Source: an uncultured bacterium
Lineage (GTDB): Bacteria; Fidelibacterota; Marinisomatia; Marinisomatales; UBA1611
NCBI GenBank assembly: GCA_965660855.1
Contig: CBFIBM010000001.1
Location: 256,001-320,000, forward strand
Length of the DNA stretch: 64,000 nt
Reading direction: 5' to 3'
Translations under genes and position numbers: made by a program
Part shown: piece after piece, positions 637-17,413 of the stretch
Layout of the letters: every line of letters starts with the position of its first letter
Position numbering within the stretch: position 1 is the stretch's first letter
Notes under the pieces: model-generated
Told to the model about the DNA's origin: nothing
The model's input: only the letters and a program-made list of their open reading frames with translations
The model's database searches: none

Positions 637-701
637 TGATCGAAAAAATCTTCTCATGATTTTAACTGGATTAAACTGTTTTTTTCCCCTAATTTGAATA
701 A

Positions 702-2021
702 ATGATTGAATTCTTTAGAATATCAAGATTAATAATGTTTTTATTAATAGTGCGGTTTATCTCAGCTGCTGAGCCCTACGTAATCATTTACTTATTACCG
801 TTTGATAATACTCAAAATGATCCTGCTTTAGAATGGATATCCCCAGGATTATCCGATATGACTAAGGAACAGATTAAAAGTATCTACGGAGTTAAAATAA
901 AATCAAAAGAAGATTTAGAGATTATAATGAATGACAGATCTTTAATGTTGCAGCAGCCACGAGGATCAAGGAATTTACTTTTGTTGGGGAAATATAACCG
1001 AAAGCTTGATAAAGTTCATGTTACGATTCAACTTGTTGATGTAGCTAATTGGGAAGAGTTAGGAAAAACACACACTACTGAAGTATATACCAGAATACCT
1101 TCATTGAATAAAAGCGTTGGTGCATCAGTTATCCAAATGATAGAACCTTTTTTGCCCAAACCTCCAAAAACAAAAATATCTCCATTCCCAATGTATGCTA
1201 AGCCAGAATTACAAGATCAAAGAAATCCTGTGTCAACCCAAGCAGAAAAACTTGCTTCGGGCCTAGACAAACAGATAGCAGAACTAGAAGCTTCAATGGA
1301 TTATTTATTAGGTGCAAGAGAACGAAGAAAAGAAAAACCAAAAGTAGATGTTCCCAGGTTTAAATCAGGTGAATGGACAATGGATTTTGATGTTGATCGT
1401 AAGCTTAAGGACAATCCTGAAAATAATTCTAATACACAAATGCTAAGCAATGTATTAGATCAGTTGTTGACTAATCCTTATGAAGTTGAATTACAACGTC
1501 CAGAATTTGACTATCAGAAGGATGACGAATTGTACATGACAGTTAGGTTTCCTATAATATACAGGTTAAAGGATAAGATCTTAAAAGATATGTTATCTAG
1601 TCTGCCTTATACTGGGCTGCAACAAGATGGATCACTTACTGTTTTCTATTTTGACAGAACAAAGTTTAATTTTCCACAAAATCATGTGGAGTCAATAGCA
1701 AATGGTGATTTCAGAATTATCCCTGTTCTGAGGATTTTTGATGAAAATAGAAATACTTTAATCTTGGTGGCTGATACTCCAGAAAAATACTGGCATTCTA
1801 GGTCAAGCGATAAGGTTTATTACGTACCCCAACATCAATTTTCACCTCTTATTGATTTTACGGTTGGCGGTTGGTCTATTCAAGTTGCTATGGAGACTGT
1901 AGAAATTCAAGCCGTTTATGAATTTATATTACCTGTAAGTGAAATGGAATCCCTCAGTAATATTAGTTTGAAATTCATAAAAGAGAATGATTTAAGAGCT
2001 TTTCTTGATCCAATCCTTTGA
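702..2021 (+). CDS. Exported hypothetical protein with TolB-N/CsgG-like N-terminal domain
   Basis: 439-aa ORF with a hydrophobic N-terminus. LLPFDNTQNDPALEWISPGLSDM resembles the 'VLPF.N......W...G..D' start of TolB_N/CsgG-like domains. Confidence 0.55.
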   Translation: MIEFFRISRLIMFLLIVRFISAAEPYVIIYLLPFDNTQNDPALEWISPGLSDMTKEQIKSIYGVKIKSKEDLEIIMNDRSLMLQQPRGSRNLLLLGKYNRKLDKVHVTIQLVDVANWEELGKTHTTEVYTRIPSLNKSVGASVIQMIEPFLPKPPKTKISPFPMYAKPELQDQRNPVSTQAEKLASGLDKQIAELEASMDYLLGARERRKEKPKVDVPRFKSGEWTMDFDVDRKLKDNPENNSNTQMLSNVLDQLLTNPYEVELQRPEFDYQKDDELYMTVRFPIIYRLKDKILKDMLSSLPYTGLQQDGSLTVFYFDRTKFNFPQNHVESIANGDFRIIPVLRIFDENRNTLILVADTPEKYWHSRSSDKVYYVPQHQFSPLIDFTVGGWSIQVAMETVEIQAVYEFILPVSEMESLSNISLKFIKENDLRAFLDPIL

Positions 2022-2097
2022 AAATATAGTTGTTAAAATAAGGATTTATTACTATTTTCGGGATATATTTATTTATTCTGTAAGTGTAGGATTTTAG

Positions 2098-3231
2098 ATG
2101 AAAATACTTTTGTTAATTTTATTGTTAATGTCAAAAATTCAAGGACAGAAACTAGATGCAATTGACATTAATTTAAGAAACCTTAATGATGTCTTAGAAA
2201 CTGCACAAAGATCTTCTCAAAAAGTATTTGTTGACGATTTTACAGGCCTTTTGTGACCATACTGTCCCTCTGCGAGTTTCGCAATTTCAGAAATGTTAGA
2301 TTTATATCCAGAAACTTTGATTAGTGTCGAGTGGCACAGCTCAGGTTTTACTCCAGGAAATTCAGATTTTGATATACCAGCATATTCTACCAGGGCAGCG
2401 TTGTACAATGTAGGAGGTATTCCTCATACTCAATGGAATGGCGTTGTTTCAACTGTTGGTGGGTATCCAAATGGTAACTGGCAAGCCTTTATTGGAGAAT
2501 TTACAAATACCTATAATAGTATGGTTGGAGAAGAAACTCCATACAATATTGACATAAACGGTTACGCGGGTAATACTGTGAATTACGATGTTACGATTTC
2601 AATGGATTCTGATATGAGTAGCTCAAACCAGAAAGTTGATGTCTTCCTTGCTGAAGATAATATATGGTCTTATTGGAGCGGCGCAAGTTCATATCATAAT
2701 GCAAGATTTGTAGCAAGGGAATGGCTTTCTTCGGAGTATCTGAGTATCAGCAGTGCCGGCCAGAGTGAAACTTTTTCTGGTTCATTTGAATACAATGGAA
2801 ATTGGAATAGTGATAGCCTTTTTTTAATTGCTATTGTTCAAAACTATTCATCAAAACAAATTTATCAAGCCTCAAAAGTTAATATAAATGATATGGATCC
2901 GGATATTGATGATGATGGTATTTTGAATAATACTGATAATTGTATTGAAGATTACAATCCTCAGCAAGAAGATATTGATAACGATCAAATAGGTGATGCT
3001 TGCGATCCATGTAATAATTTAATTTATACTCTAGGCAACCCAAATGGTGATACAAATATCAATGGAGATCCCCTCATTGACATCATGGATGTCTTAACCC
3101 TTGTAGATTATCTTGCATTTGATCAAAATGAAAATATTTGCCAGGAACCAACTCTAAATATAAATCAAGATAATCATGTTAATATCGTTGATGTAATAAA
3201 TCTTGTTCAACTGATTCTTAATGGTGCATAA
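2098..3231 (+). CDS. Putative selenoprotein: Omp28-like thioredoxin-fold exported protein (UxxC) with TSP3-like repeats and C-terminal dockerin-like domain
   Basis: ATG 2098 gives MKILLLILLLMSKIQGQ...KVFVDDFTGLL-TGA(2254-2256)-PYCPSASFAISE, continuing in frame into the 2293..3231 ORF. The motif matches the Omp28-type 'v.vedFTg.wC.yCP', and 'YNVGGIPH' is the cis-Pro loop. The tail has DIDDDGILNNTDNC..CDPC and duplicated D/N-x-N-x-D..I.D dockerin loops. Confidence 0.85.
2257..2290 (+). promoter_or_regulatory. Candidate bacterial SECIS hairpin
   Basis: TGCGA(2271-2275)-GTT-TCGCA(2279-2283) is a perfect stem with a G-first loop 19 nt after the in-frame TGA. Confidence 0.65.
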
Positions 3232-3733
3232 TTTCTTAATAAAACCACTATTAAAATTTGTTTTTTTTAGTTCAGTTTTCTTTTCTTTTGCTCTTGCAAA
3301 AAAAGTTCCTGATTTAAATATTAAACTTATTGATGGATCAAAGACTACAATTCTAGAGCTTGCAGAAGATGGTCCATTATTAATTGATTTTTGGGCAACT
3401 TGGTGTGTTCCATGCAAAAAAGTGATGAAACATTTAAATCAATTTCATCTAAAATATGATGATCAAAATTTTAAGGTTTTAATGATTAATACAGATAGTC
3501 CTAGGTCTTTTGGAAAAGTAAAATCATTTATAAGATCTCAAGATTATAAATTTTATGTAGGGTTAGATCCTAACCAAATTACAGCCAGAAAACTTGATGG
3601 ATTAGTTATGCCTACTCTTATTTTAGTTGATGCAGGTGGGGAAATAACTTGGAGACATCAAGGTTACTCACCAGGTGATGAAAAAGAAATTGAAAATCAG
3701 ATTGAATTATTACTAAGTAAAAATACTAAATGA
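3221..3733 (+). CDS. TlpA/ResA-family thiol:disulfide oxidoreductase (exported)
   Basis: Signal peptide, LIDFWATWCVPCKK motif and MPTLILVD cis-Pro loop. Confidence 0.9.
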   Translation: MVHNFLIKPLLKFVFFSSVFFSFALAKKVPDLNIKLIDGSKTTILELAEDGPLLIDFWATWCVPCKKVMKHLNQFHLKYDDQNFKVLMINTDSPRSFGKVKSFIRSQDYKFYVGLDPNQITARKLDGLVMPTLILVDAGGEITWRHQGYSPGDEKEIENQIELLLSKNTK

Positions 3734-5682
3734 TATCAAAATTATTTAGGCTTAGTAAGCTTATTTTTCTTTTATGTTTTTTAACAGCTCAAGACTTTAG
3801 TTATAACGCCTCTATTAATTCAAGTTTTGGAAATAGTTATGATTTTTATTCTTTTTCAGAAAATAGGATAAACATCAACTTATTTTACAATAACTTTCAA
3901 AGTTGGGTTCAATATGAATATTCAAACCCACCCGACGTAGGTTTTCCAATTAATGATATAAGAAAATTTCGATTTGAATATCAAAATAAAGCTTTAAATA
4001 TTAAACTTGGCGACATTTATGAAATTTGGGGTAGGGGTTTAGTTCTTAATCAATTCGATGATCAACTTTTAGATTTTGACAATGGAATAAGAGGACTTTT
4101 TATAAATTATGGTAAAGGTCCGTTTAGTTTAACACACATAAATGGTAATGCAAATTTATGGAGTTACGGTCTTGATTTAAGAAAACCATATTATAATGAT
4201 AAGCATAATGTTATAGCAAACAGACTCCTTTATGAAAAAGGTTCCACAGTATTAGGCTTGACACATTTGATTTCTAGTGAAGAGCATTCCAAGTTAAATT
4301 TAGATGTAGTAGATGTGGGGCATACAATTAAGGGTATTTACGGTGATTATTCTTCTAATAATTTTGATATTTTTTTAGAATATGTAGATAAGGTCTCAAT
4401 CTCTAAAAATATAGTTTCAAATAATTTTCCAAATGATACCCTCAAAACAGGGTATGGTTTATATGGTAATTTGAATTTTTACTTAGGATCTTGGGGTCTA
4501 ACTACCGAGTATAAAAATTATTCTTTTGATTCGTTTATTAGTGATAAAACTCCAGATGATTATGGAAATCAAATTCAATTTCAACAAATGCCAACTTTAG
4601 GTAAGGAGCATAATTCAACGCTACTTGGTAGACTTAGCCATTATTATAATTTTAATGATGAAAGAGGTGTACAGTATGAGTTAAATGGATCATTTATAGG
4701 ACTGTCAATTAACCTTCAATATGCTCATTTAAGTAGGAATGAACAATGGTTTTCACAAAATGGCCCGTTTTCTTGGACAAATAAGATTTTGAGATCAAAA
4801 TTACCTAGTACAAAAATTAATACTAACCCATACTATGAAAACTTCCAAGAATTAAGTGGCTATCTGTTTGAAGATAAACTCTTTTTTAAGATTGGCAGGG
4901 GAGCAAATAAAGAAGTTTTAGGAACAAATTGGTTTTTTAATGGGGTTCAAACAGACACCTCTTATAGTTTGAGTTTTGCTTATGATACAACCTATTCGCC
5001 ATATGCTCCTGATTATCCAATAATTACGGTTGATAGCCTATATGACACATCTTCTGTTAGTTATAATATAAAAGCAGAGAATTGGAGAGAGAGTCAATCT
5101 TTTACGATTCCTGTTGAATTAAATTATACTATGTCAAGTGGATACTCCTTCGGAGTTGGTTTTCAGTACCAGGAGAGAACTTTAAATGAAAAAAGAAAAG
5201 GAAATTCTCATTCATATAATGTTGGAAATTCAAAATGGAATTTAGTTAATCCAGATGATTCAGACTATAAATCTACTTTAATTATATCTCAACTCTCTAT
5301 AAATGGTAAACCTAGGAAAATCCAACATAATCGTCTATTATCATTTACTTTAAGTAAAGCGCAGAAATGGTCAGTTACTATTACACAAGATTGGACTGAT
5401 GCATATGAGGTCCAATCATCTGATCCTTATTATAATCCATTAGAGGCAATAGTATATGGTGATTTAAAATATTTTACTGGGAAAAGAAATAATGTTTCTC
5501 CTCCTTCATTTATTCAAAATAAATGGGTTTCGGCAGAAGTATCATATAACATTAATTCATCTCAAAAAGTTTCAATTTTTTATGGATCTATTCAAGGTGG
5601 CTTATTCTGTAATAATGGAATATGCAGAATTATACCTGCATTCAATGATGGTATAAAAGTTGGCTATTATTTCAGTTTATAA
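3730..5682 (+). CDS. DUF6029-like outer-membrane beta-barrel protein with C-terminal CxxGxC motif (copy 1)
   Basis: Signal peptide, GDIYEIWGRGLVLN, QQMPTLGKEH, and C-terminal GGLFCNNGICRIIPAFNDG..YYFSL. ATGA-coupled to the TlpA gene. Family recalled from motif, not searched. Confidence 0.7.
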   Translation: MISKLFRLSKLIFLLCFLTAQDFSYNASINSSFGNSYDFYSFSENRININLFYNNFQSWVQYEYSNPPDVGFPINDIRKFRFEYQNKALNIKLGDIYEIWGRGLVLNQFDDQLLDFDNGIRGLFINYGKGPFSLTHINGNANLWSYGLDLRKPYYNDKHNVIANRLLYEKGSTVLGLTHLISSEEHSKLNLDVVDVGHTIKGIYGDYSSNNFDIFLEYVDKVSISKNIVSNNFPNDTLKTGYGLYGNLNFYLGSWGLTTEYKNYSFDSFISDKTPDDYGNQIQFQQMPTLGKEHNSTLLGRLSHYYNFNDERGVQYELNGSFIGLSINLQYAHLSRNEQWFSQNGPFSWTNKILRSKLPSTKINTNPYYENFQELSGYLFEDKLFFKIGRGANKEVLGTNWFFNGVQTDTSYSLSFAYDTTYSPYAPDYPIITVDSLYDTSSVSYNIKAENWRESQSFTIPVELNYTMSSGYSFGVGFQYQERTLNEKRKGNSHSYNVGNSKWNLVNPDDSDYKSTLIISQLSINGKPRKIQHNRLLSFTLSKAQKWSVTITQDWTDAYEVQSSDPYYNPLEAIVYGDLKYFTGKRNNVSPPSFIQNKWVSAEVSYNINSSQKVSIFYGSIQGGLFCNNGICRIIPAFNDGIKVGYYFSL

Positions 5683-5760
5683 AACCATTAATTGTTTCTT
5701 TTTATTAATTATCTTTTGAATTTTTCAGTTCCAAAAGTATATCGTGATATTTAAAATTAT

Positions 5761-6645
5761 GTGAAGAATTATATCTTAAGCATTCCTTTAGCAAAATTAA
5801 TTTTTATTCTATCTATTATTTTATCAAATACTATTTATCCTCAAATAGATATAGGTTCAATATCTCCTAATTTCACTGCTCCTGTATGCGCAAACGGTGA
5901 TCTCGAGTTATTCAACTTGTACCAACAAACTAATGGCAGTTTTAATGGTGGTGATTATAAAGTAGTATGGATCAATTTATTTACTTCTTGGTGACCAAGT
6001 TGCCAAGTGGAGGCTCCACTATCAGAAGAAATATGGCAAGAATATTTAAGCGGAGGGGAAGAAAAATTAGTTGTTATGGCAGCTGGGTTTGATTGGCATC
6101 AGCCTTATAGCTGTGAAGAATGGTCAACTGCATTTGGTATAACATACCTAATGGTAGATGATACAAATAATGAAGCATGGAATATTTATGGTGATGGCTA
6201 TATTCCGCATAATGTAGTGTTAGATCATAACATGCAGGTTCTATATACAAGTTCAGGATTTAACTCAAATGAAATAAAAGATGCAATCGATCTCGGCCTA
6301 TCTTATGTTCCAAGAGATTTAGATTTAGATGGAATTAATGATAACATAGATAACTGTGATGATATTTATAATCCTAATCAAGAGGATGTTGATGTAGATG
6401 GCATCGGTGATTTATGTGATAATTGCGATAACTATAATGTATTTATTTCTGGAAATACTGATGGTGGTTTAGTAAATGGAATTCCCATTTTAGATATTTT
6501 TGATGTGTTGAACCTAGTTGATATTGTTTTATTGGATGAATCTGGTACCTGTAGATCTGATATCTCAGATTTGAATTCAGATAATAATATTAATATTATT
6601 GATGTGATATTTCTTGTACAGGGGTTGTTAAATGGTGAATTTTAA
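5761..6645 (+). CDS. Putative selenoprotein: exported redoxin (UxxC) + TSP3-like repeats + dockerin-like domain
   Basis: ORFs 5761..5994 and 6007..6645 are in the same frame and joined by a single TGA (5992-5994), reading INLFTSW-U-PSCQVEAP. Paralogues at 13932 and 15002 read FTSWCGFC and FTSWCAYC. Confidence 0.9.
5995..6039 (+). promoter_or_regulatory. Candidate bacterial SECIS hairpin
   Basis: AGTGGA(6006-6011)-GGC-TCCACT(6015-6020) stem with the loop 17 nt after the TGA. Possible lower stem TTGCCA(6000-6005)/TGGCAA(6034-6039). Confidence 0.7.
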
Positions 6646-6757
6646 ATTCAAAAACTTAGTTAAGATTTAAACAATAAAAAATATTACAATTTAACATTCA
6701 TAAATGTTGATGTTTTTAAAGATTTAGATTAGAATTTATATATATATTTCTACATTC

Positions 6758-9700
6758 ATGAATATTTTTAAAAAAATGACCTTCTTCCTTCTGTTTTTTT
6801 CCTTAATTAAAGGTCAAGGTGATTATTCATTTAAAAATATTTCAGTAGAAGATGGACTTGCTGAAAGTACTGTAAAGATAATCTATGAGTCAAAACAAGG
6901 TTTTTTATTTTTTGGAACTGAAAATGGTCTTGATATTTTTGATGGTTATAAATTTAAAAACTATCATATGGATTCATTCGATAATGAATCAATTCTTGGA
7001 AATAAAGTTTCAGCTATTTACGAATCAAGTAATAATTTGATCTGGGTAGGAAGTGAGCTAGGATTTAGTTCATTTAATCCTTCAACACAAAAATTCAAAA
7101 GACCGTCATTAAGTAATAATAATATTACAAATCCAGAAAAAATTACAGAAGATGAAAGTGGGAAAATCTGGATTAAAGAGGCTCAATCTAGCCGTTTATT
7201 TAAATATGATTTTAATAAAGATATTCTTGAATGTATTTCATGTGATCAAATGAGCATCCTTTTTAATCAAACCATAAATATTCTACACAAATCGAATAAA
7301 GGTGCTTTGTGGATTGGTACTGATAAAGGTCTTTATTTTTATGATATTAATGATAAATCTATCAGGCCGATTGAATCAAAATATTCCTTAAGCATTAATG
7401 AGCCATATTATATTACATCAATTGAAAATGGATCAGATTCCATTTTATGGATAGGAACAAAACAAGGTCTTATCAAAATTGAAGAAAATAATAAGAGTCA
7501 AATTAAGATTTTTAAGAATTCGGAGGTTGAAAATTCTATCGTTTCTAACAAGATAAATGATATTAAATGGGATAATCTTAGGAATGAGTTATGGATTTCT
7601 ACTGTGGATGGAATTTCAAAATATTCACCTGAACTAAATTCTTTTTCTAACATTCAAGTAGGTCCGTTTGCTAATAGCATAATAGAAAATGATGTTACGG
7701 ATATTTTGATTGCTGAAAAGTCTGGAACTTTATGGTTTAAAACCAGAAACCGCTTTGGAATAAATAGTTTTAAAGCAACATTCAATGAATTTGAGGGGCC
7801 GGATACTTCAATTATGCATTTTGAACATGATCCTATTGATCCATTTTCTATTGCTGACAATGATATAACAAATTTTATTGAGGATAGAGCTGGCCACGTC
7901 TGGATAGGAACACGACAAAATGGGATAAGCTTTTATTCATTTTTGAAGCCTAAATTCTCATTGCTTGAATATGATCAAGAAAATGAATGGGGCCTCAAAA
8001 GTAATAAGATTTATTCAATTACAACCGATTCTTATGGTATGATGTGGGTTGCAACAGGGTTTGGATTAGAAAATATTTCTTCGGATGGTATTAGAGATTT
8101 TGAATTTGAAAAATCTTTTATTGAATCCAACCATGTCATGGATTTAGAGTTAGTAAATGATCAATATTTATGGGCGGCAACTGAAAATGGAATTCTTAGA
8201 ATTGATGTATTATCAGAAGAAATTATTCGATTTAACACCTCTCAAAATGTTAATAAAAAAAGATTAATTTCTGATAATTTTATTAGAGACCTGCTTATAA
8301 CAAAAAATGGTTCTATTTGGGCGGGGACAAAATCAGGAATTACAATAATAGATACAGTTGATTTAAGTGCTGTCAGTTTTAGCTCAGATTTTACTGCTAG
8401 GGTATTATACCAAGACGAAAGTGAAAATATATGGATAGGAACAGATTATAATGGATTATATCAAATACCATATGAAATTATTTCTGATCTAAAAAAAGAA
8501 GATATTTTTGAAGTAGAGGGTCATGTTTTTGACTCAGAGTTTTCTGATGGTCTATCATCTTCACAAATAACCTCTATAACTCAAGATACGACTGGTGTTT
8601 TATGGGTTGGTACAGCTAGTGGTTTAAATAAGTATATTGAAAGTGAAGATACCTTCTATCATTATTTCATGAAAGATGGTCTACCTAGTAACTATATTAC
8701 GGGTGTTATTGTAGATCAAAGTAATAACCTGTGGATAAGCTCTAAGAACGGTATTTCTTTCTTTAATCAGAAAGACTCTTCTTTTATAAATTATGGGGTT
8801 TCCGATGGAATAGGGAATATTGATTTTCATCAACATTCTTTTGAAAAAAGTATTGATGGAAACATATATTTTGGTGGGCCAAAAGGAATAACTAAAGTAA
8901 ATCCCTCAAATTTACAATATAATGAATACAAACCTCCTTGTTCAATTCTACGCATTAAAAAAACACTTTATGATGGATCTATTACTGAAGTTTTTCCTCA
9001 AAAAAGTTCGAAACTAGAAATTCAAAAGATTAATATAAATCATAAAGTAAAATCATTCTCAATCGATTTTGTTGCTCTGAATTATCATAAAACTATAAAG
9101 AATGAATATAGATATAAACTTCAACCTTTTGATAGGAATTGGGTAGAATCGGGGAATATTAAATTTGCATCTTACAATAATTTAGGTAGAGGAGAGTATA
9201 CCTTTTTTGTGCAAGGATCTAACGATGATGGATTATGGAGTCAGTCTGCTGTTTTAGATTTTAAATTTATTCCTCATCCTCTTTTAAGTTATGGTGCTTT
9301 TGGAGTCTATCTTGCACTAATTATATTTGGTGTATACTGGCTAGTTAAACAAAGAATATTAAAACAGCAATCTGAGGCTGATGAAAAGAGAAGAGCCGAA
9401 GAATTAGAGCAAGCTCGGGAATTCCAGATGTCACTAATACCTCAAAATCCTCCTTCTATCAGCGGATTTGAATTTGCTTTGCATATGAAAACATCTACGG
9501 AGGTTGGTGGTGATTATTATGATTTTTTTCCTCAAAAAAATAATGTTCTTTATGTAGTTTGTGGTGACGCCACTGGGCACGGTTTAAATGCTGGTATGAT
9601 GGTTTCAATTACAAAAGCAGGATTATTCGGATCAGACTTTAGTAATCCAGGTATTACAACTACTAGGTTAAATCAAACAATAAAAGCTATTGATCTTGGA

Positions 9701-10105
9701 ACAACAAGGATGTCTTTGAATATGGCTAAGTTTGAAAATGAATCCTTTGAGTTTACATCAGCTGGTATGCCTCCTGCATATTTATTTCGTGGTGAAACAA
9801 AGGTTGTAGAGGAAATTTTAATTCCTGGTTTGCCTCTGGGGTCTATGAAAAATGCTACATTTGATTCTGAGATATTTGAATTTAAAATAGATGATGCGTT
9901 AATCTTAATTTCAGATGGACTTCCTGAATGTGTTGACCATAAAGATGAAATGTTAGATTATGATGCAGTAAAGAACTGTATTGAAAAAAATGGGCATAAA
10001 TCAGCAAATGGCATTAAAGATGCCTTGATAAAATTGGGTGATGACTGGATGGACGGTCTAATGAATGATGATGATATAACATTGGTAATTATAAAGAGGA
10101 AATAG
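6758..10105 (+). CDS. Membrane sensor: two-component-type beta-propeller repeats + Y_Y_Y domain + TM + SpoIIE/PP2C Ser/Thr phosphatase
   Basis: Repeated 'LWIGT..GL' propeller motifs, YRYKL..FD..W/ASYNNL.RGEYTF (Y_Y_Y), a TM near residue 850, then EVGGDYYDF, GDATGHG, LISDGL and DDDITLV PP2C motifs. Confidence 0.9.
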   Translation: MNIFKKMTFFLLFFSLIKGQGDYSFKNISVEDGLAESTVKIIYESKQGFLFFGTENGLDIFDGYKFKNYHMDSFDNESILGNKVSAIYESSNNLIWVGSELGFSSFNPSTQKFKRPSLSNNNITNPEKITEDESGKIWIKEAQSSRLFKYDFNKDILECISCDQMSILFNQTINILHKSNKGALWIGTDKGLYFYDINDKSIRPIESKYSLSINEPYYITSIENGSDSILWIGTKQGLIKIEENNKSQIKIFKNSEVENSIVSNKINDIKWDNLRNELWISTVDGISKYSPELNSFSNIQVGPFANSIIENDVTDILIAEKSGTLWFKTRNRFGINSFKATFNEFEGPDTSIMHFEHDPIDPFSIADNDITNFIEDRAGHVWIGTRQNGISFYSFLKPKFSLLEYDQENEWGLKSNKIYSITTDSYGMMWVATGFGLENISSDGIRDFEFEKSFIESNHVMDLELVNDQYLWAATENGILRIDVLSEEIIRFNTSQNVNKKRLISDNFIRDLLITKNGSIWAGTKSGITIIDTVDLSAVSFSSDFTARVLYQDESENIWIGTDYNGLYQIPYEIISDLKKEDIFEVEGHVFDSEFSDGLSSSQITSITQDTTGVLWVGTASGLNKYIESEDTFYHYFMKDGLPSNYITGVIVDQSNNLWISSKNGISFFNQKDSSFINYGVSDGIGNIDFHQHSFEKSIDGNIYFGGPKGITKVNPSNLQYNEYKPPCSILRIKKTLYDGSITEVFPQKSSKLEIQKININHKVKSFSIDFVALNYHKTIKNEYRYKLQPFDRNWVESGNIKFASYNNLGRGEYTFFVQGSNDDGLWSQSAVLDFKFIPHPLLSYGAFGVYLALIIFGVYWLVKQRILKQQSEADEKRRAEELEQAREFQMSLIPQNPPSISGFEFALHMKTSTEVGGDYYDFFPQKNNVLYVVCGDATGHGLNAGMMVSITKAGLFGSDFSNPGITTTRLNQTIKAIDLGTTRMSLNMAKFENESFEFTSAGMPPAYLFRGETKVVEEILIPGLPLGSMKNATFDSEIFEFKIDDALILISDGLPECVDHKDEMLDYDAVKNCIEKNGHKSANGIKDALIKLGDDWMDGLMNDDDITLVIIKRK

Positions 10106-10116
10106 GTTAAACTCTC

Positions 10117-10683
10117 ATGATAAAAAATACAATTAGAATAATCTATTTGCTTATGTTTCTTTCACTTGGATATTCTCAAGAAAAAATACCAAACTTGAGA
10201 CTTAAAATGTTGAATGGAAAATATGCAAAAGTAAATGATTTTTTAAAAGATGGACCAATGATTATAGATTTTTGGGCTACTTGGTGTGAGCCATGTAAGA
10301 AACAGATGAAATATCTTAATATATTTAATAATCATTTTAAGGAAACTGGATTTAAAGTACTTGCTGTTAACACTGATACACCTAAAAGTATGAGTAAGGT
10401 TAAATCTTATGTCAGAACAAAAAAGTTTGAGTTTGACGTTGCAGTGGACCCGAATAGTCAGGTTAAAAAGAAAATGAAGGTTTTGCAAATGCCTACAACT
10501 ATTTTAGTTGATAAAACTGGACAAATAGTTTTTAGACATCAAGGATATTTACCTGGCGATGAACATGATATTCTTCAAGCTATTTATGGTTTAATGGATA
10601 AAAACAATACTAGTTATGAAAAACTTGATTTGAATAAGAACAATAAAAAACAAATTAAATCCGGTGCTGAAGTTGATTTTTAA
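10117..10683 (+). CDS. TlpA/ResA-family thiol:disulfide oxidoreductase (copy 2)
   Basis: Signal peptide, IIDFWATWCEPCKK and MPTTILVD. Clear paralogue of 3221..3733. Confidence 0.9.
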   Translation: MIKNTIRIIYLLMFLSLGYSQEKIPNLRLKMLNGKYAKVNDFLKDGPMIIDFWATWCEPCKKQMKYLNIFNNHFKETGFKVLAVNTDTPKSMSKVKSYVRTKKFEFDVAVDPNSQVKKKMKVLQMPTTILVDKTGQIVFRHQGYLPGDEHDILQAIYGLMDKNNTSYEKLDLNKNNKKQIKSGAEVDF

Positions 10684-12946
10684 TAAGCAAATAATTGTAT
10701 CATTCATATTGATACTTAGTAATTCAGATTTATTTTCCCAAATAACAGCTGGTGGGAACTCTATTCTAAAATTTGGCGAGAGTAAAAATGAATTTCACTA
10801 TTCAGAGGTTTTGCTGAATATGAACTTATCAAATGATTATTTGGAGACTTGGTTTCAATTCGAATACAGCAAACCACCTGAGATTGGGATGAGTATTAAT
10901 GGTCTGAGAAAATTTAGGATTGACTATTCTGATGGCCCTTTCGAATTATCTGTTGGAGATATATATAAAATTTGGGGGAGGGGGTTAATATTGAACCAGT
11001 TTGATGATCAGGATGTAAATCTTGATAATGGTTATAGAGGATTAAGTTTCAGTATAATAAAAGATAACTATACCATTGATTTAATATCTGGAATTTCAAA
11101 TATACATAGAATTAGTCAAGATTACTGGCAAAATATAGATCAAGAATCAAGAAAGCCAAATCATTTATCAAAACATTCTATGTTTGGTAGTGATTTAGAG
11201 TTTTTTCAAGGACCTTTTTCTCTAGGTTTATCCTTTCTTCAAAGTAGAGAGAATCATCCCATCAATAATCCGATCACGATGATGGCAGATAGTATTAATG
11301 TAATTCATCGAATAAATGGTTTAAGAGCCGGATATGAAGGCGGGCGTCTCGCCTCCTACTTAGAATTATCTGGAAAAAATACGCTATTATCTCAATCCGA
11401 AAGTCAAATATATAAGGAAAATTTTAATCCTTATAATGGCTTCAGTCTTTTTGGAAATATTAATTATTATTTTCAAAGTCAGCTTCTAGACGGATGGTCA
11501 TTAACAATGGAGTATAAAAACTACAATACAACAAAATTAAATACATCAGATAAAGACAATTTTGTTAAAAATTATGATATGAATTTAATTTTTACTCAAC
11601 CCCCGACTGTTTTAAGGGAACATAGCAGTGTATTTTTAGCTAGACTTATTCCTCAGGTAAATTTCAGCGATGAAGTAGGTTATCAATTTTCTCTTGTTGG
11701 TCCTATTATGGGGATAGGGTATTTTACTCTCAACTATCAAGCCGCAAGTAGAACAAACTTATGGGGTAAAACATACCCAGATACTGTAAATGCTATATTA
11801 TCTACTAAATGGGAAAGTGATAGTGCAGTTACCGTATTGCCATTCAGTGAAAAATCCGGACTGCCATACAATGAACTTTATCTTGAAATGGAAGGTTACA
11901 TAAAAAATATTAGGTATCAATTTGGCTTTGGTATCACAAACAAAATACCTGAATATCATTCGTCGTATAATAGTGGAAAGAATGGTGTCTGGGATAATGG
12001 TGAAGCGTTTGATGATTTAAATGGCAATAATATTTATGATATTGGAGAAAATTTTACTGATCTTTACAGTATAGTAAATGAAAAAATTGATAATAAAACT
12101 GTTACAGCCATTACAATACCTTCTCTTCTAAATTATAATTTAGGAAATGGGTGGAGTATTGATTTAAAATATGAATTTCAAAAGATTAAAAGTGGTACAA
12201 AATATTATAATTCATTGTCCTCTGATGAAGTATTCTATGATAGTAATGGAAATGGTGTTTGGGATATTGCAGAGTTATTTGAAGATAGTAATGGTGATGG
12301 TATTTGGAACCAAGCTGAAGAGACATGGTATGATTTATGGCAAAGTGGTTTAATACCCGATGAACAATTATACTACTATGATACTGACGGCGATGGTTTA
12401 TTTTCGGAGGGAGAATATTTTACTGATGCTGATGGAAATGGCATGTGGAATTCATCAGAAAACTTAATTGATGAAGATGGTGATGGAATATGGGATGATT
12501 CAGAGTATTTGGAGGATCTAAATAATGATGGAGTCTGGACAAAAAGTGGAGTGTATGAAGATAGGTATCAATCTAATTTTTATTCAAATGATTCAAAAAG
12601 TGGGTTGAGTATTCCTGAAGATTTTCAAAATAATCATCTGATATCACTCGGAATAGGAAAATCGCCTTATTGGTCACTATCTTTAACGGTTGAATCAAGT
12701 TCAACCTATGAATATGGTCCATTAAAAAATAGTGTTGTTAATCCTCTAGAGAGTTTCTTAGGTAATATTATTGATTTAAATAATAAGTGGATTGCTTTAG
12801 AATTTATGGTGAATATAAATTCAAATACTAGGCTCGATTTAATGTACGGTACGCAAAGGGGAGGGATTATTTGCAGTAATGGAATTTGTAGGTATGTTGA
12901 ACCTTTCGATGATGGATTTAAATTAGCGTTATCAACAGTATTTTAA
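10664..12946 (+). CDS. DUF6029-like outer-membrane protein (copy 2) with inserted acidic DxxGxGxWD repeats
   Basis: Shares GDIYKIWGRGLILNQFDDQ, QPPTVLREH and C-terminal GGIICSNGICRYVEPFDDG with 3730..5682, and ends in Phe. Confidence 0.7.
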   Translation: MLKLIFNKQIIVSFILILSNSDLFSQITAGGNSILKFGESKNEFHYSEVLLNMNLSNDYLETWFQFEYSKPPEIGMSINGLRKFRIDYSDGPFELSVGDIYKIWGRGLILNQFDDQDVNLDNGYRGLSFSIIKDNYTIDLISGISNIHRISQDYWQNIDQESRKPNHLSKHSMFGSDLEFFQGPFSLGLSFLQSRENHPINNPITMMADSINVIHRINGLRAGYEGGRLASYLELSGKNTLLSQSESQIYKENFNPYNGFSLFGNINYYFQSQLLDGWSLTMEYKNYNTTKLNTSDKDNFVKNYDMNLIFTQPPTVLREHSSVFLARLIPQVNFSDEVGYQFSLVGPIMGIGYFTLNYQAASRTNLWGKTYPDTVNAILSTKWESDSAVTVLPFSEKSGLPYNELYLEMEGYIKNIRYQFGFGITNKIPEYHSSYNSGKNGVWDNGEAFDDLNGNNIYDIGENFTDLYSIVNEKIDNKTVTAITIPSLLNYNLGNGWSIDLKYEFQKIKSGTKYYNSLSSDEVFYDSNGNGVWDIAELFEDSNGDGIWNQAEETWYDLWQSGLIPDEQLYYYDTDGDGLFSEGEYFTDADGNGMWNSSENLIDEDGDGIWDDSEYLEDLNNDGVWTKSGVYEDRYQSNFYSNDSKSGLSIPEDFQNNHLISLGIGKSPYWSLSLTVESSSTYEYGPLKNSVVNPLESFLGNIIDLNNKWIALEFMVNINSNTRLDLMYGTQRGGIICSNGICRYVEPFDDGFKLALSTVF
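12238..12545 (+). repeat. Coding repeat: ~6 acidic D-x-[ND]-G-[DN]-G-x-W/F units (putative Ca-binding loops)
   Basis: DSNGNGVWD, DSNGDGIWN, DTDGDGLFS, DADGNGMWN, DEDGDGIWD, DLNNDGVWT. Confidence 0.8.
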
Positions 12947-13015
12947 TCTAGCTTTTAATGAAAAATATCAATAAATTGAAAATAATTACATAACTTCAAT
13001 TAAAACAAAACTTAC

Positions 13016-13909
13016 ATGAAAAAATTCATTTTAAAGTTTTTTATTTTATTTTCTATAACATTTCCCTCATTTGTTATATGTCAGGGTCAAATTATACAAG
13101 ATTTTTCCTACCCAATTTGTGCTAATGGTGATGGTGAAACAGTTTTAAATTTTTATGAATCATTCAACGGATCAGTAAACAATTGTGAGTATAAAGTAGT
13201 TCTTGCTACACTTTTCACCTCCTGGTGACCATCCTGTATGACGGAGGCTCCGGTTCTAGAAGAAATATTTAACACCTACAAAGATCAAGGATTAGAAGTT
13301 GTTGCATTTGGAGCCGACTGGTATCCTGATGGACCCTATACTTGTGAAGGGTGGGATCAACAATTTAATCTTTCTTACCCAATACTTGATTTTGAGACAG
13401 GATTAGAAAATTGGTATTGGGAGTCAGCTCCGTATGATTTATACCAGCCCGAGTTAGGTTGGGGGTTACCTTTTAATGTAATAATAAATCATGAGATGGA
13501 AGTTTTATGGGGTGCAGCAGCCAACTTTGAGGGTGATGTAATGGCTGAGGCTATAGGTGTTATTGAATCAGCTCTCCAAGCGTTGAATGAAGAATTTCCC
13601 GATGGTCCAGGGGATGATGATGGAGATGGAATAGCAAATGGTTGTGATCCTTGTCCAGAATCTCATTTACACCATCCTGGAAATTTTGATTTTTCTCAGG
13701 TTTATTCACATTTTGATAATGGTGCAGTCTTTGTACCATCTGTAGATATTTTTGATTTAATACTATTTTCAGATTATATAATGGATGGTGGCTACCTAAC
13801 TGATTGTATCTTAGAGGCGCACGATATTACCGGGGATGGTTATGTCAATCCTTTCGATGTTATAGCATTAGCTCAATTAATTCTTGGAAATGATTGGGGT
13901 TTAAATTAG
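13016..13909 (+). CDS. Putative selenoprotein: exported redoxin (UxxC) + short TSP3-like motif + dockerin-like domain
   Basis: ORFs 13016..13228 and 13238..13909 are in the same frame and joined by one TGA (13226-13228), reading ATLFTSW-U-PSCMTEAP. Homologous throughout to 5761..6645. Confidence 0.9.
13229..13260 (+). promoter_or_regulatory. Candidate bacterial SECIS hairpin
   Basis: CGGA(13242-13245)-GGC-TCCG(13249-13252), with the same GGC loop and 17-nt spacing as at 6006-6020. Confidence 0.65.
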
Positions 13910-13931
13910 CCTGATTATTTTCTTCTTATAA

Positions 13932-14855
13932 ATGAAATTATTTTATCATATTTTTCAGAAGAGTATTATTATTTTTGTTTTAATTTATACTTCTACCACT
14001 TCAGAAATGCAAGGTCAGGTAGCTGTAGGTGACACTATAAACCCTTCTCAATTAAGTTTACCAATTTGCGCTAATCAAGAACCCTTTGGCCCTTCAGAGC
14101 AATTTTTTGATATTTCGATTTATAATAACCCAGATCAAGATTCACAATCAAAAGTAATTTTACTTTCTATTTTTACATCATGGTGCGGATTTTGTCAAAC
14201 TGAAGCTACACACTTACAAGATTTACATACTGAATTTGCCGATGATGGATTGTTAGTTGTTTCAGCTGGAGGAGATTGGGGTTTTCCATATGATTGTGAG
14301 GGTTGGTCTAATGAATTTGATTTAAGTTATCCAATATTAGATTTTATGAATCCCTTTAATCCTAATTGGGGAGAAGCGCCATTAATGACCTATTTAGGAG
14401 TAGCTGCAATACCCTTTAATGTAATTATAGATCATAGGAACATAGTCTCAAATATTATAATAGGATATAATGAGGAAATATTGAACCTAGCTATTGAAGA
14501 TGCTCTTGAAGCAATGATTCAAGATAGTGATGGTGATGGAATTAATTCTGAAGCAGATAACTGTCCATCAATATTCAACCCAGGTCAATCTGATTTTGAC
14601 GGTGATGGCATAGGAGATGTCTGCGATGCTTGTGATAATCTTAATATATTTGTTAACGGAAATCTTAATGGTACATTAAATCTTGATCAAGAACCAACCA
14701 TTGATATTCTAGACTTATTGTTACTGGCCGACTTCCTTGAGGGATTACCAGATCAAAATATCTGTCATGAGGCTGCCTCTGATATTAATGAGGATTCTAA
14801 TATAAATTTACTTGATGTATTTTCACTTGCCTATCAAATTACTGGGCAAAATTAA
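13932..14855 (+). CDS. Exported redoxin (CxxC, Cys paralogue of the selenoproteins) + TSP3-like repeats + dockerin-like domain
   Basis: Signal peptide, PICAN, IFTSWCGFCQTEA, IPFNVIID, DSDGDGINSEADNCP..CDAC and a dockerin-like tail. Confidence 0.88.
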   Translation: MKLFYHIFQKSIIIFVLIYTSTTSEMQGQVAVGDTINPSQLSLPICANQEPFGPSEQFFDISIYNNPDQDSQSKVILLSIFTSWCGFCQTEATHLQDLHTEFADDGLLVVSAGGDWGFPYDCEGWSNEFDLSYPILDFMNPFNPNWGEAPLMTYLGVAAIPFNVIIDHRNIVSNIIIGYNEEILNLAIEDALEAMIQDSDGDGINSEADNCPSIFNPGQSDFDGDGIGDVCDACDNLNIFVNGNLNGTLNLDQEPTIDILDLLLLADFLEGLPDQNICHEAASDINEDSNINLLDVFSLAYQITGQN

Positions 14856-15001
14856 AATAGGATAAAGGCCTTGAGCAAAGTTATACTTTTATCGTTGGTT
14901 ATTTATTATCAAATTTTGAACCTATATAAAAAGGTATCTATTTTGTATAATCAGGTTCTATTTACAAAATTTTAACAAAAATTATTTTAAAAAGATCAGT
15001 T

Positions 15002-15916
15002 TTGTTAAAAAAAAATTTTAAAAAAATAAATTACCTCAAAGTATTTACAATACTTTTATTGCAATCATTATTATATAGTCAAATTGCAATTGGTGATACT
15101 GTCTTTAATCTGCAATTACCAATATGTGCTAATTCTGATCCTGATATTCACGAACAGCAATATTTTGATATAAATGATTATAATGGTTTTCCCGAAAGTA
15201 CTATCAGCCCAAGGGTAATTCTTCTTGCAATCTTTACTTCATGGTGTGCGTATTGTCAAACTGAAGCGTTCCTTTTAGAAGATTTACATGAGGAGTATAT
15301 TGATGATGGATTATTGGTCCTTTCTGCTGGTGGTGATTGGGGCTTCCCATATGATTGTAGTGGTTGGGCAAATTCATTTAATTTAACTCATCCAATATTA
15401 AATTTTATGACAACTAATGTGGAAAGTTGGGAAGATGCTCAATTGATAAACTATTTGGGAGTTGGTATTGTACCACATGCTGTTGTAATTGATCATCGAA
15501 ATATTCTTTCAAACACCATTGTGGGTTATAATCCTAATGCTTTGAATCAAGCTGTTGAAAGTGCGCTTGAAACAATGGCTCAAGACCTTGATGGTGATGG
15601 AGTTTTATTTGATGATGATAATTGTCCTTCAATTCATAACCCAGAACAAATAGATATTGACAATGATAACCTTGGTGATGAATGTGATTTATGTGATAAT
15701 CTTAATAATTTTGTAATTGGCAATCTAAATGGTACACTAGATCAATTTCAGCAAGCAACCATTGATATTTTTGATTTATTGTTATTAACTGATTTTTTAG
15801 ATAATTCTTACGAGAATAATGTATGCTCTAACGCTGTATCCGATATTAATGGTGATAATTCTATAGATCTAATTGACGTATTTACGCTTGCTTATATTAT
15901 TTCAGAACAAAATTAA
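15002..15916 (+). CDS. Exported redoxin (CxxC) + TSP3-like repeats + dockerin-like domain; tandem paralogue of 13932..14855
   Basis: TTG start, PICAN, IFTSWCAYCQTEA, shared SAGGDWGFPYDC, DLDGDGVLFDDDNCP..CDLC. Confidence 0.88.
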   Translation: MLKKNFKKINYLKVFTILLLQSLLYSQIAIGDTVFNLQLPICANSDPDIHEQQYFDINDYNGFPESTISPRVILLAIFTSWCAYCQTEAFLLEDLHEEYIDDGLLVLSAGGDWGFPYDCSGWANSFNLTHPILNFMTTNVESWEDAQLINYLGVGIVPHAVVIDHRNILSNTIVGYNPNALNQAVESALETMAQDLDGDGVLFDDDNCPSIHNPEQIDIDNDNLGDECDLCDNLNNFVIGNLNGTLDQFQQATIDIFDLLLLTDFLDNSYENNVCSNAVSDINGDNSIDLIDVFTLAYIISEQN

Positions 15917-15974
15917 AAAAAAATAAATTTTTTGAAAGGAAGTCTGTAATTTCAATCCTATTCAAAGAGTATAT

Positions 15975-16048
15975 GCGCCCGTAGCTCAACTGGATAGAGT
16001 GTCTGGCTACGGACCAGAAGGTTGGGGGTTCGAATCCTCCCGGGCGTA
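15975..16048 (+). tRNA. tRNA-Arg (anticodon ACG, read as ICG); CCA not encoded
   Basis: Acceptor GCGCCCG/CGGGCGT, D-arm TAGCTCAACTGGATAGAG, anticodon arm TCTGG-CTACGGA-CCAGA (ACG at 16009-16011), T-arm GGGGG-TTCGAAT-CCTCC. Confidence 0.97.
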
Positions 16049-16056
16049 CTGACGAC

Positions 16057-16091
16057 AAACCCTTCTTTTCAGAGGGGTTTTTTGTTTTTTT
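16057..16091 (+). terminator. Rho-independent terminator after tRNA-Arg
   Basis: AAACCCTTCT-TTTC-AGAGGGGTTT hairpin followed by a T-run. Confidence 0.85.
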
Positions 16092-16136
16092 GAAAGTGTA
16101 ATTTTGTGTAAATAAGATGCAGTAGACGGGATTAAG

Positions 16137-16157
16137 AATGTCCCAAAAATGTCCCAA
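16137..16157. repeat. Tandem direct repeat AATGTCCCAA x2 (possible integrase arm-type binding sites)
   Basis: Exact 10-mers at 16137-16146 and 16148-16157, abutting the stop codon of the integrase remnant. Confidence 0.55.
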
Positions 16158-16325
16158 TTACAACTGATTGATAATAGGGGATAGTTTATCTACATTAATA
16201 TGGACATATTGAGCAGTAACATCATCAGCCTTATGTCCTAATAGATATTTGGTATCCCACTTGGTAGCACCAAACTCTTTCAGGTGCGTAGAGAATGAAT
16301 CGCGAAGAGTATGCAAATCGCTATG
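16158..16325 (-). pseudogene. Tyrosine recombinase/integrase C-terminal remnant
   Basis: The minus strand reads HSDLHTLRDSFSTHLKEFGATKWDTKYLLGHKADDVTAQYVHINVDKLSPIINQL*, containing box II H-x-L-R, LLGH and the catalytic Y. No ATG in frame upstream before a stop. Confidence 0.85.
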
Positions 16326-16608
16326 AATTATATTTAATGTAGAATTTTTGTAATATTCATATCTTGAGTAATTTATTTTTTTTATAAAGTTTTTTAAATG
16401 AAAATAATCATTAATGATTATTCAATCTATTTACTTATTAATCTTGATTAATTCTTTTTCGTTTGCTCAGGAAACATGATTTATTTAAAATTTGCCATAA
16501 ACTGACTATTGAGCTTATATTCTAGTAGAGTAAAGTACTCACGAGGTAAGTGAAAAAGTTAAATAATTGAAGATCACACGGTGCGGTGTGTCTTATATGG
16601 AGTTCAAC

Positions 16609-17403: not shown

Positions 17404-17413
17404 AATCTAAACA

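Follow-up and report, generated by a model that had tools for sequence, protein, structure and literature searches.

Within a 64,000-nucleotide stretch of the genome of an uncultured bacterium (the window; positions 256,001–320,000 of contig CBFIBM010000001.1), ten genes, here g1 to g10, lie on the plus strand at positions 2098–15916, packed with overlaps or short gaps. They encode two exported TlpA/ResA-like reductases (g2, g6), two outer-membrane barrels of family DUF6029 (g3, g7), a sensor phosphatase (g5) and five redoxins, three with an in-frame TGA at the redox site (g1, g4, g8) and two with a cysteine (g9, g10). The source genome belongs to SAR406/Marinimicrobia and comprises 2.09 Mb in 81 contigs, at 84% completeness. 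The cluster consists of two tandem copies of a conserved envelope module of the Fibrobacterota–Chlorobiota–Bacteroidota (FCB) group, and the module is a genuine, deeply conserved unit whose function is unstudied. Its best reading, based on synteny and structural models and held at a probability of roughly 0.4, is a relay that would carry reducing equivalents across the outer membrane. What sets the window apart is that the module is duplicated in tandem together with a PP2C sensor, that its redoxins have expanded to five, and that the secretion tail is lost while dockerin-like modules are kept.

A conserved TlpA–barrel gene pair

Both barrels belong to Pfam family PF19494, with 87.3 bits for g3 and 75 bits for g7 against a cut-off of 27. 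The reductases match the Pfam families Redoxin and AhpC-TSA (70.9 and 65.7 bits in g2, 80.1 and 85.2 bits in g6), and neither reaches the NCBIfam cut-offs for TlpA (NF047696; 56.5 and 65.9 bits versus 230) or ResA (NF002854; 66.8 and 97.1 bits versus 170). Among solved structures, the TlpA family profile fits 2m72 best (E 7e-34; 'uncharacterized thioredoxin-like protein'), and it also hits ResA and TlpA. The initial annotation of this DNA, made from the letters alone, had listed ten co-oriented genes, and all of them were recovered on the plus strand at the coordinates given in Table 1. Its family calls held in part. DUF6029, Redoxin/AhpC-TSA and Omp28 were confirmed by Pfam and NCBIfam scans of the proteins read with selenocysteine (Sec), but TSP_3 and Dockerin_1 score 16–22 bits in the window and stay below the Pfam cut-offs. 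Redoxin/AhpC-TSA matches lie above the cut-offs in g2, g4 and g6, and barely above them in g8 and g9. The CxxGxC motif with which the outer-membrane proteins were thought to end is real but stands, in g3, 19–24 residues before the C-terminus.

Of the phylum's 201 sampled genomes 103 contain DUF6029, as do 86 of the 140 high-quality ones; the window's genome has two copies only, both in the cluster. A TlpA gene stands directly upstream of the barrel, on the same strand, in all 30 Marinimicrobia loci with 1.5-kb flanks. The same holds for 39 of the 40 longer Marinimicrobia loci (up to 20 kb); in the remaining one the barrel was detected by Pfam and not by blast. In 26 of these 40 loci the barrel is flanked, nearly always directly on its downstream side, by at least one redoxin gene of the Omp28-like or ResA-like type. 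A protein search with the barrel profile returned Marinimicrobia-type matches only and is uninformative on other phyla. Beyond Marinimicrobia, 80 loci were retrieved with nine other family representatives, from metagenome-assembled genomes labelled Ignavibacteria, Melioribacter, Chitinophagales and Bacteroidota; carriers of the module among them bear the names Ignavibacterium album and Melioribacter. TlpA adjoins the barrel upstream in 72 of the 73 Ignavibacteria/Bacteroidota loci with enough upstream DNA to be testable, and lies 952 nt away in the other one; an Omp28-like gene adjoins the barrel downstream in 60 of 75. The TlpA/DUF6029/Omp28 neighbourhood that the initial annotation had named for Bacteroidota is real by these counts, and TlpA, barrel and redoxin co-occur across two phyla. 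As TlpA and barrel are near-constant and the redoxin is sometimes missing, we regard the TlpA–barrel pair as the fixed core and the redoxin as a frequent third part. In one Marinimicrobia genus (labelled g7 among the sampled genomes, distinct from gene g7; G024, G035, G043, G071 and others), whose genomes measure 0.8–1.1 Mb, the TlpA–DUF6029 pair is kept in 7 of 13 sampled, and its retention in such small genomes suggests that it is not dispensable baggage.

A homologue of orf0, the gene upstream of g1, precedes TlpA in 16 of the 40 long Marinimicrobia loci by gene calls (18 by tblastn map), most in genomes of the window's taxonomic order, and the gene at 702–2021 is therefore added to the conserved unit as an eleventh member. 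No Pfam or NCBIfam family matches orf0, and an alignment of 17 sequences holds no invariant cysteine. In its AlphaFold2 (AF2) model (predicted local distance difference test, pLDDT, 77), residues 25–155 resemble TolB, PelC and CsgG at Z 9.8–10.4 (VIA structure comparison) and also LptE at Z ~10, and the atlas lead is FlgO/CsgG/LpoB (0.87). TolB-N, PelC, CsgG and LptE sit under outer-membrane barrels, and the predicted fold match of orf0 at Z ~10 is only a lead in this direction. The sensor g5 matches Reg_prop (135.6 bits), SpoIIE (91.4 bits, above cut-off) and Y_Y_Y (51.6 bits) in Pfam. Elsewhere, tandem duplication together with this sensor was found only in L064 and L082, the two genomes sampled from the window's family, where g5 homologues stand at the same place between the modules.

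Table 1 Features of the cluster and its 3' neighbours, in positions of the window (T9SS, type IX secretion system; TSP3, thrombospondin type 3 repeat; SECIS, selenocysteine insertion sequence)
Feature	Position	Strand	Description
orf0	702..2021	+	exported 439-aa protein, no family; N-domain likened to TolB-N, PelC, CsgG, LptE
g1	2098..3231	+	377 aa; Omp28-related selenoprotein (GOS_C), UPYC (...GLLUPYCPS...); signal peptide, thioredoxin-like N-domain, Omp28 domain, TSP3, dockerin-like tail; no T9SS tail
g1 Sec codon	2254..2256	+	TGA
g1 SECIS-like hairpin	2271..2283	+	loop GUU
g2	3221..3733	+	exported TlpA/ResA-like reductase, WCVPC; 4-nt overlap with g3
g3	3730..5682	+	DUF6029 outer-membrane barrel; ...GGLFCNNGICR...
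g3 invariant hairpin codons	5596..5628	+	G623-G624-x-x-C627-x-x-G630-x-C632
g4	5761..6645	+	294 aa; ResA-like redoxin selenoprotein, WUPSC (...FTSWUPSCQ...); TSP3 and dockerin-like tail, no T9SS tail
g4 Sec codon	5992..5994	+	TGA
g4 hairpin	6000..6025	+	
g5	6758..10105	+	sensor: Reg_prop propellers, Y_Y_Y domain, one membrane helix, PP2C (SpoIIE) phosphatase
g6	10117..10683	+	second TlpA/ResA-like reductase, WCEPC
g7	10664..12946	+	second DUF6029 barrel, 760 aa; ...GGIICSNGICR...; inserted acidic DxDGDG-type repeats
g8	13016..13909	+	297 aa; ResA-like redoxin selenoprotein, WUPSC (...FTSWUPSCM...); dockerin-like tail
g8 Sec codon	13226..13228	+	TGA
g8 hairpin	13234..13259	+	
g9	13932..14855	+	Cys paralogue, WCGFC (FTSWCGFCQ); TSP3 and dockerin-like tail
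g10	15002..15916	+	Cys paralogue, WCAYC (FTSWCAYCQ); TSP3 and dockerin-like tail
tRNA-Arg	15975..16049		between the cluster and the Ig-like protein
D/E/Y-repeat protein	16567..17403	+	278 aa; signal sequence, long D/E/Y repeats (EEYLDDEEY...), Gly-rich C-terminal half
Ig-like protein	17414..30157	+	4247 aa; repeated Ig-like modules, T9SS-type tail (...NYPNPFNPTT...GVYFIQLKT...KMMLLK)

The barrel and its predicted complex with TlpA

The wider DUF6029 family comprises about 2,050 cluster representatives at E values up to 0.001. An alignment of 37 barrels averages 25% identity per column and has no more than 12 invariant columns; five of these make up the motif GG-x-x-C-x-x-G-x-C, whose residues (G623, G624, C627, G630 and C632 in g3) are shared by 37 of 37 sequences. 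No cysteine beyond the motif pair occurs in 23 of 36 barrels. Of 146 representatives of the wider family, 127 carry the motif, and many of the 19 without it are short fragments. The AF2 model of g3 (pLDDT 84.1, predicted template-modelling score 0.83) has 24 transmembrane strands as counted from its secondary structure, with turns of 2–4 residues alternating perfectly with loops of 5–44 residues. This alternation places the Cys hairpin (residues 624–635) in the last extracellular loop.

Structure comparison of g3 with VIA-align returned the ushers FimD (Z 18.8, root-mean-square deviation 4.4, 359 aligned residues) and PapC (Z 17.7) on top, and MtrB at Z 13.8 (417 aligned). Foldseek retrieved generic large barrels only, at template-modelling (TM) scores of ~0.4; 22-strand TonB-dependent transporters fill that list, with E values down to 4.7e-10. 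A sequence search of g3 against solved structures gave nothing meaningful. A polysaccharide-porin role for DUF6029 has been proposed from an HHpred likeness to Wzi in a passing remark of one paper, the only mention of the family found in print (PMC9603273); Wzi is not among the 50 VIA matches listed for g3. The second barrel, g7, differs by about 150 extra acidic residues with DxDGDG/DxNGNG repeats, at residues ~440–640, where g3 has extracellular loops, and a g7-like 753-aa orthologue stands beside tail-less dockerin redoxins in the sister genome L064. These acidic repeats could be a calcium-dependent docking site.

The g3 barrel (residues 21–650) was modelled together with the g2 TlpA (residues 25–170) in three runs. 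The interface score ipSAE amounted to 0.78, 0.80 and 0.77, and all controls, comprising two unrelated partners of like size and one unrelated first chain, scored 0.00. Contacts agreed between runs to at least 84%, with a partner pLDDT of at least 84. Of 157 solved complexes 116 pass the mark applied to ipSAE, and of 215 mismatched pairs 2 do; these counts are only rough as our own alignments were used. On the barrel side, TlpA contacts the ends of the N- and C-terminal strands and most of the periplasmic turns (171–172, 208–215, 247–260, 317–326, 382–387, 463–473, 542–548 and 607–613), as well as the lumen loops 97–109, with the conserved WGRGL motif, and 288–295, and N629 between the hairpin cysteines. 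On the TlpA side the interface includes the active-site residues W61-C62-V63 and the family-specific stretches 93–108 and 144–156. These positions put TlpA, in the model, inside the periplasmic mouth of the barrel with its CxxC side facing the lumen. Barrel residues at the interface are modestly more conserved than the rest (1.99 versus 1.65 bits, p 2.7e-4). The prediction supports, and does not demonstrate, that TlpA binds as a plug in the periplasmic mouth. To our knowledge there is no comparable TlpA–barrel complex, so that recall from solved structures is an unlikely source of this prediction. A buried structural disulfide had been named in the initial annotation as one finding that would refute the proposed system; the pair is invariant and N629 of its hairpin touches TlpA in the model, and it therefore does not look like an ordinary disulfide of a variable loop.

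Selenocysteine, tails and sorting of the redoxins

In g1, g4 and g8 the in-frame TGA forms the first position of a UxxC redox motif, and we are highly confident that these codons are read as Sec. These TGA positions align with cysteines in the paralogues g9 and g10 and in Cys homologues. Among 38 related genes beside DUF6029 barrels in other Marinimicrobia, 28 have TGA and 10 a Cys codon at the redox position, and conserved coding sequence flanks the TGA on both sides. TGA also serves as a plain stop nearby, at the end of g2 (3731–3733) and of the upstream gene (2019–2021); the three in-frame TGAs are therefore context-specific, and the code is not reassigned. The Sec machinery, whose absence would have spoken against the initial annotation, is complete in this 84%-complete genome: tRNA-Sec (63.3 bits), SelA (422.9 bits) and SelB (303.4 bits), encoded by adjacent genes, and SelD (388.9 bits) all lie above their family cut-offs. 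The gene for SelD (G000:C19:7427-8353, L016) itself carries one in-frame TGA, so that selenophosphate synthetase is a selenoprotein here.

A hairpin follows the TGA in both redoxin types. In the Omp28-like genes it has 5 bp, spans +18 to +30 with loop GUU and shows compensatory changes in 4 of 5 pairs (11 sequences); in the ResA-like genes a 4-bp stem with loop GGC lies at +17 to +27, together with a lower stem, and is conserved in 14 sequences, again with compensatory changes. As these hairpins overlap conserved codons and single-sequence folds after the three TGAs do not exceed shuffles (z 0.07, -0.06 and 1.47), we count the SECIS evidence as supportive only. An Rfam scan of bases 1–20000 yielded tRNA-Arg and no SECIS family match. 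The weak single-sequence folds would also suit a decaying cluster in which the TGAs are true stops of pseudogenes or split genes. Such decay is extremely improbable, given the complete machinery, the TGA precisely at the first redox position of 28 of the 38 related genes with conserved flanks, the conserved hairpins, and the curated selenoprotein model NF045500 that covers g1 end to end.

Gene calling with translation table 11 returns 2293–3231 in place of g1, 5761–5994 and 6007–6645 in place of g4, and 13016–13228 and 13238–13909 in place of g8; all three Sec genes are thus split or truncated, as the initial annotation had expected. That the system would for this reason be missed by normal annotation holds in part only: g1 has a curated NCBIfam selenoprotein model, and catalogues have listed the selenoprotein families since 2008. 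Specifically, g1 matches NF045500 (Omp28_seleno) with 562.6 bits at a cut-off of 200, over profile positions 4–377 of 377 and with the motif UPYC, and Pfam Omp28 (PF11551) with 27.3 bits. NF045500 appears as 'Hypothetical protein GOS_C', with UxxC, in a table of a 2026 review (PMC13188914). The Global Ocean Sampling (GOS) paper of 2008 counts 74 Sec sequences under GOS_C, which it describes as UxxC proteins of Trx-like fold with no known function, and lists UxxC 'Prx-like' families of pfam00578 and pfam08534 in its Table 2 (PMC2398784). The WUPSC redoxins g4 and g8 seem to fit this 'Prx-like' UxxC class, as matched by family description and not against the sequence sets of that paper. The three selenoproteins are real but already known, and the novelty is the system, not the single proteins.

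The remaining redoxins g4 (31 bits to Redoxin; ResA structures at E 5e-5) and g8–g10 are ResA-like, and the tails of all five, g1 included, combine a TSP3 repeat with a dockerin-like duplicated calcium loop. phmmer matches the thrombospondin repeat to solved thrombospondins (E 1e-10 to 1e-14). Dockerin family PF00404 scores 16.5–17.6 bits in the window at a cut-off of 22.9, and 29.4 and 30.1 bits in two relatives. The T9SS tail Por_Secre_tail (PF18962) was above its Pfam cut-off in 17 of 17 relatives tested, and a hidden Markov model (HMM) built from relatives' tails detects a secretion tail in 29 of the 38 barrel-adjacent Marinimicrobia redoxins. Seven further tail-less Sec forms all come from the window's two sister genomes and keep the TSP3 and dockerin-like modules and the export signals; sister genomes have a 509–511-aa form of g4 with a secretion tail. 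In Ignavibacteria/Bacteroidota the third protein is a Cys form in 58 cases and a Sec form in one, and about half of these proteins end like T9SS cargo. Seventeen short Omp28-like CxxC forms from Ignavibacteria (L161, L153, L143, L158, L147, L154 and 11 others) have a lipoprotein start, ...(Y/S/T/L)SC-ESND(N/G/S)P..., and acidic residues after the lipid-carrying cysteine resemble the surface-export signal of Bacteroidota lipoproteins. A lipoprotein start in some genomes and a T9SS tail in others point to two alternative sorting routes for the same component, which in these relatives appears destined for the external side of the outer membrane. SprA is encoded in the window's genome.

Two claims of the initial annotation on the redoxins find no support in the window. 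The redoxins had been placed at the cell surface, and the T9SS tail that all tested relatives have is absent here; they had further been taken as tethered by their dockerins, and no cohesin partner was found in the genome. The sole genome match to cohesin scored 22.2 bits, rising to 25.1 against a cut-off of 24.1 only when in-frame neighbours were included; this borderline match disappeared when 705 residues of that protein (L048) were rescanned, and the candidate was dropped. A recurrent C-terminus of T9SS cargo in the phylum consists of the dockerin-like module, a domain of ~130 residues and the secretion tail (for example G000:C2:67462-70788, L048) and is found at many genome sites; relatives' redoxins have the same order. 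No credible Pfam match was obtained for the ~130-residue domain in three proteins scanned, two giving no Pfam row and the third two chance-level rows (E 0.05 and 0.14). A 210-residue query comprising this middle domain and the tail gave 73 matches spread over the genome, mostly to the tail part. At a guess, the middle domain might play a cohesin-like role.

Outside the cluster, one frame carries a TSP3/dockerin-like tail with 103.8 bits to the tail part of NF045500 (G000:C1:124379-124750, L181) and another is weakly Omp28-like (G000:C1:351544-352263, L186); both may be further redoxins of the cluster's kind. Directly 3' of the cluster and the tRNA-Arg gene lies the 4247-aa Ig-like protein with a T9SS-type tail, for which no association with the redox module was seen in relatives. 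The 278-aa D/E/Y-repeat protein has no Pfam or NCBIfam match.

A possible thiol relay across the outer membrane

A search for dsbD or ccdA elsewhere in the genome, as proposed with the initial annotation, identified a full-length DsbD with N-terminal, membrane and thioredoxin domains on another contig, followed by one more ResA-like redoxin. In the relay that we favour, DsbD would presumably keep the TlpA/ResA-type reductase (g2, g6) reduced, and this reductase would sit as a plug in the periplasmic mouth of the 24-strand DUF6029 barrel (g3, g7). The last extracellular loop of the barrel would fold into the lumen, where its hairpin, bearing the family's only invariant cysteines, could meet the CxxC-bearing side of TlpA. 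Thiol/disulfide or selenol/selenenylsulfide exchange might then run from DsbD over TlpA and the barrel hairpin to a surface redoxin, keeping surface redox enzymes reduced outside the outer membrane. In Marinimicrobia the majority of terminal redoxins carry Sec in place of the attacking cysteine. As a guess, the final substrate could be disulfides in an extracellular protein, or oxidants at the surface. Taken together, a coupled reductase, a Cys pair in the lumen, surface-sorted CxxC/UxxC partners and DsbD make a thiol/disulfide chain across the outer membrane the simplest account. We infer the existence and direction of electron flow, and likewise the surface position of the window's tail-less redoxins. 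The in-silico support covers the first step of the relay, and the relay itself appears plausible. Its specific form, in which a TlpA-plugged 24-strand barrel passes reducing equivalents through the invariant Cys hairpin to surface Cys/Sec redoxins, is put forward tentatively.

Several observations weigh against the relay. Neither C627 nor C632 is among the listed TlpA contacts, which include N629 as the only hairpin residue, and the interface residues of TlpA are not more conserved than the rest of the protein (p 0.22). Complex modelling can put a small protein into an empty barrel, though the two unrelated proteins of like size scored 0.00 here. The predicted 24-strand topology is a count from secondary structure and not a membrane-embedded model, its best fold matches are protein-translocating ushers, which would fit a transport role equally, and the invariant Cys pair could be purely structural. 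In the window, Pfam and the tail HMM detect no T9SS tail in g1, g4, g8, g9 and g10, and these proteins have no lipobox; they may remain periplasmic, where TlpA could reduce them without the barrel. No redoxin gene follows the barrel in 14 of the 75 Ignavibacteria/Bacteroidota loci, unrelated genes standing there at L119.

Part of this evidence is shared by other explanations. The barrel could be a dedicated translocation pore or anchor for the neighbouring thioredoxin-fold proteins, with TlpA as a removable plug or chaperone that keeps the Cys/Sec site or the hairpin gate reduced. FimD and PapC, the closest folds, are usher pores that pass folded proteins, TlpA fills the periplasmic mouth in the model, and the five redoxins of the window and seven of its sister genomes lack the T9SS tail and keep export signals, so that they would need another route if surface-bound. 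Consecutive locus tags in P. gingivalis, PG2172 (PorA), PG2173 (Omp28) and PG2175 (a thioredoxin-domain protein), as they appear in a proteome paper discussed below, would also suit such a pore. However, export is already explained by the T9SS tail in the 17 tested relatives and in 29 of 38 overall, other relatives' redoxins are lipoproteins, no usher sequence family and no energy source are seen, and a plain pore needs neither an invariant redox-type Cys pair nor a strictly coupled reductase; we consider the pore unlikely. An equally doubtful scheme confines the coupling to the periplasm: TlpA would reduce the redoxins or the barrel cysteines once, before export or folding, no reducing power would cross the outer membrane, and the barrel, with a structural disulfide, would do other work, for instance as a porin or Wzi-like glycan anchor. 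TlpA, ResA and CcmG normally act on periplasmic targets, and the missing surface-sorting tag of the window's redoxins, the loci with TlpA and barrel and no adjacent redoxin, and the HHpred link between DUF6029 and Wzi (the same passing remark, PMC9603273) agree with this scheme. Strict TlpA–barrel adjacency over two phyla and a strong complex prediction with the CxxC toward the lumen would be unexpected for a one-off chaperone, though, and no motif of the barrel is better conserved than the hairpin; a structural disulfide of an outer loop would not usually be kept so strictly.

We give still less credence to a thiol-exchange uptake gate, in which a surface CxxC/UxxC protein would capture a thiol-reactive species, be it a disulfide, a polysulfide, a selenium compound or a soft metal, and hand it via the barrel hairpin to TlpA, in a layout like that of a surface lipoprotein with a plugged TonB-dependent transporter. 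All three parts do bear Cys/Sec sites, the plug-in-barrel layout resembles the 22-strand TonB-dependent transporters retrieved by Foldseek, and surface lipoprotein and barrel are arranged as in BtuG/BtuB and SusD/SusC. Yet no ligand-binding family, TonB box or inner-membrane transporter is conserved in the unit, a TM score of ~0.4 reflects merely a big barrel, and TlpA-type proteins are known as reductases, not as carriers.

We know of no route by which reducing power reaches the exterior of a Gram-negative cell without haems or shuttles, and of no reductant for surface thioredoxin-like proteins such as HBP35 and Omp28. If the module is a thiol relay as proposed, it would define a class of outer-membrane machines not described before, with a wide distribution in the FCB group that takes in Porphyromonas, and both DUF6029 and the selenoprotein GOS_C, long an orphan, would gain a function. 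The selenium that abundant ocean bacteria invest in exported proteins would then be explained as well, and the selenium demand of one of the ocean's most abundant uncultured phyla would be linked to cell-surface chemistry. Even if the relay is wrong, a barrel that is plugged by a reductase, as predicted, and kept across phyla would be an unstudied envelope complex. What the window adds is a module duplicated in tandem with a sensor phosphatase, redoxins that have lost their secretion tail, and the complex modelled in silico. Our literature searches found no publication on the function of the module; subscription-only papers and supplements might hold one.

Parts of the module recall known systems. 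The GOS_C and GOS 'Prx-like' catalogues concern single proteins from short reads, with function stated as unknown, and describe no gene context, barrel, TlpA or secretion tags. Known DsbD/CcdA pathways through TlpA, ResA or CcmG have their final targets within the periplasm, for example apocytochromes and copper centres. The module shares with them the exported WCxPC proteins of the Redoxin/AhpC-TSA families, g2 and g6, and a DsbD in the genome, whereas the reductase of the module is coupled to a barrel in the outer membrane and to surface-sorted redoxins, and the NCBIfam equivalog cut-offs are not reached. P. gingivalis Omp28 (PG2173, PDB 2r2c) and HBP35 (PDB 5y1a) are matched by the Omp28-like profile at E 1.1e-5 and 3.7e-5. 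HBP35 is described as T9SS cargo with thioredoxin activity (PMC2907840), and a 2026 proteome paper names PorA (PG2172), Omp28 (PG2173) and PG2175, a thioredoxin-domain protein detected in outer-membrane vesicles, the gene order being seen from its locus tags alone (PMC13744359). Unlike the selenoproteins of the window, Omp28, PG2175 and HBP35 are Cys forms, and the searchable papers describe no common system for them.

Among outer-membrane machines, the FimD and PapC ushers (PDB 3ohn, 2vqi) are 24-strand barrels with a lumen plug and the best structural matches of g3. Here, in contrast, the N- and C-terminal usher domains are absent and the predicted plug is a separate thioredoxin-fold protein; the Pfam scan of the cluster proteins shows no usher family, and the cluster has no pilin or chaperone genes. 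A likeness in layout exists to MtrCAB (PDB 6r2q): both have neighbouring genes for a large outer-membrane barrel, for a redox protein that enters from the periplasmic side and for another one at the surface, and MtrB is among the fold matches of g3. The analogy is one of layout only, since here there are no haems or CXXCH motifs, no cytochrome family was found by Pfam among the ten cluster proteins, the proposed carriers are Cys/Sec pairs, and no sequence relationship exists. If true, the relay would be the first conduit known to carry redox equivalents across a bacterial outer membrane by means of thiols, with protein thiols in the place that haems have in the MtrCAB wire.

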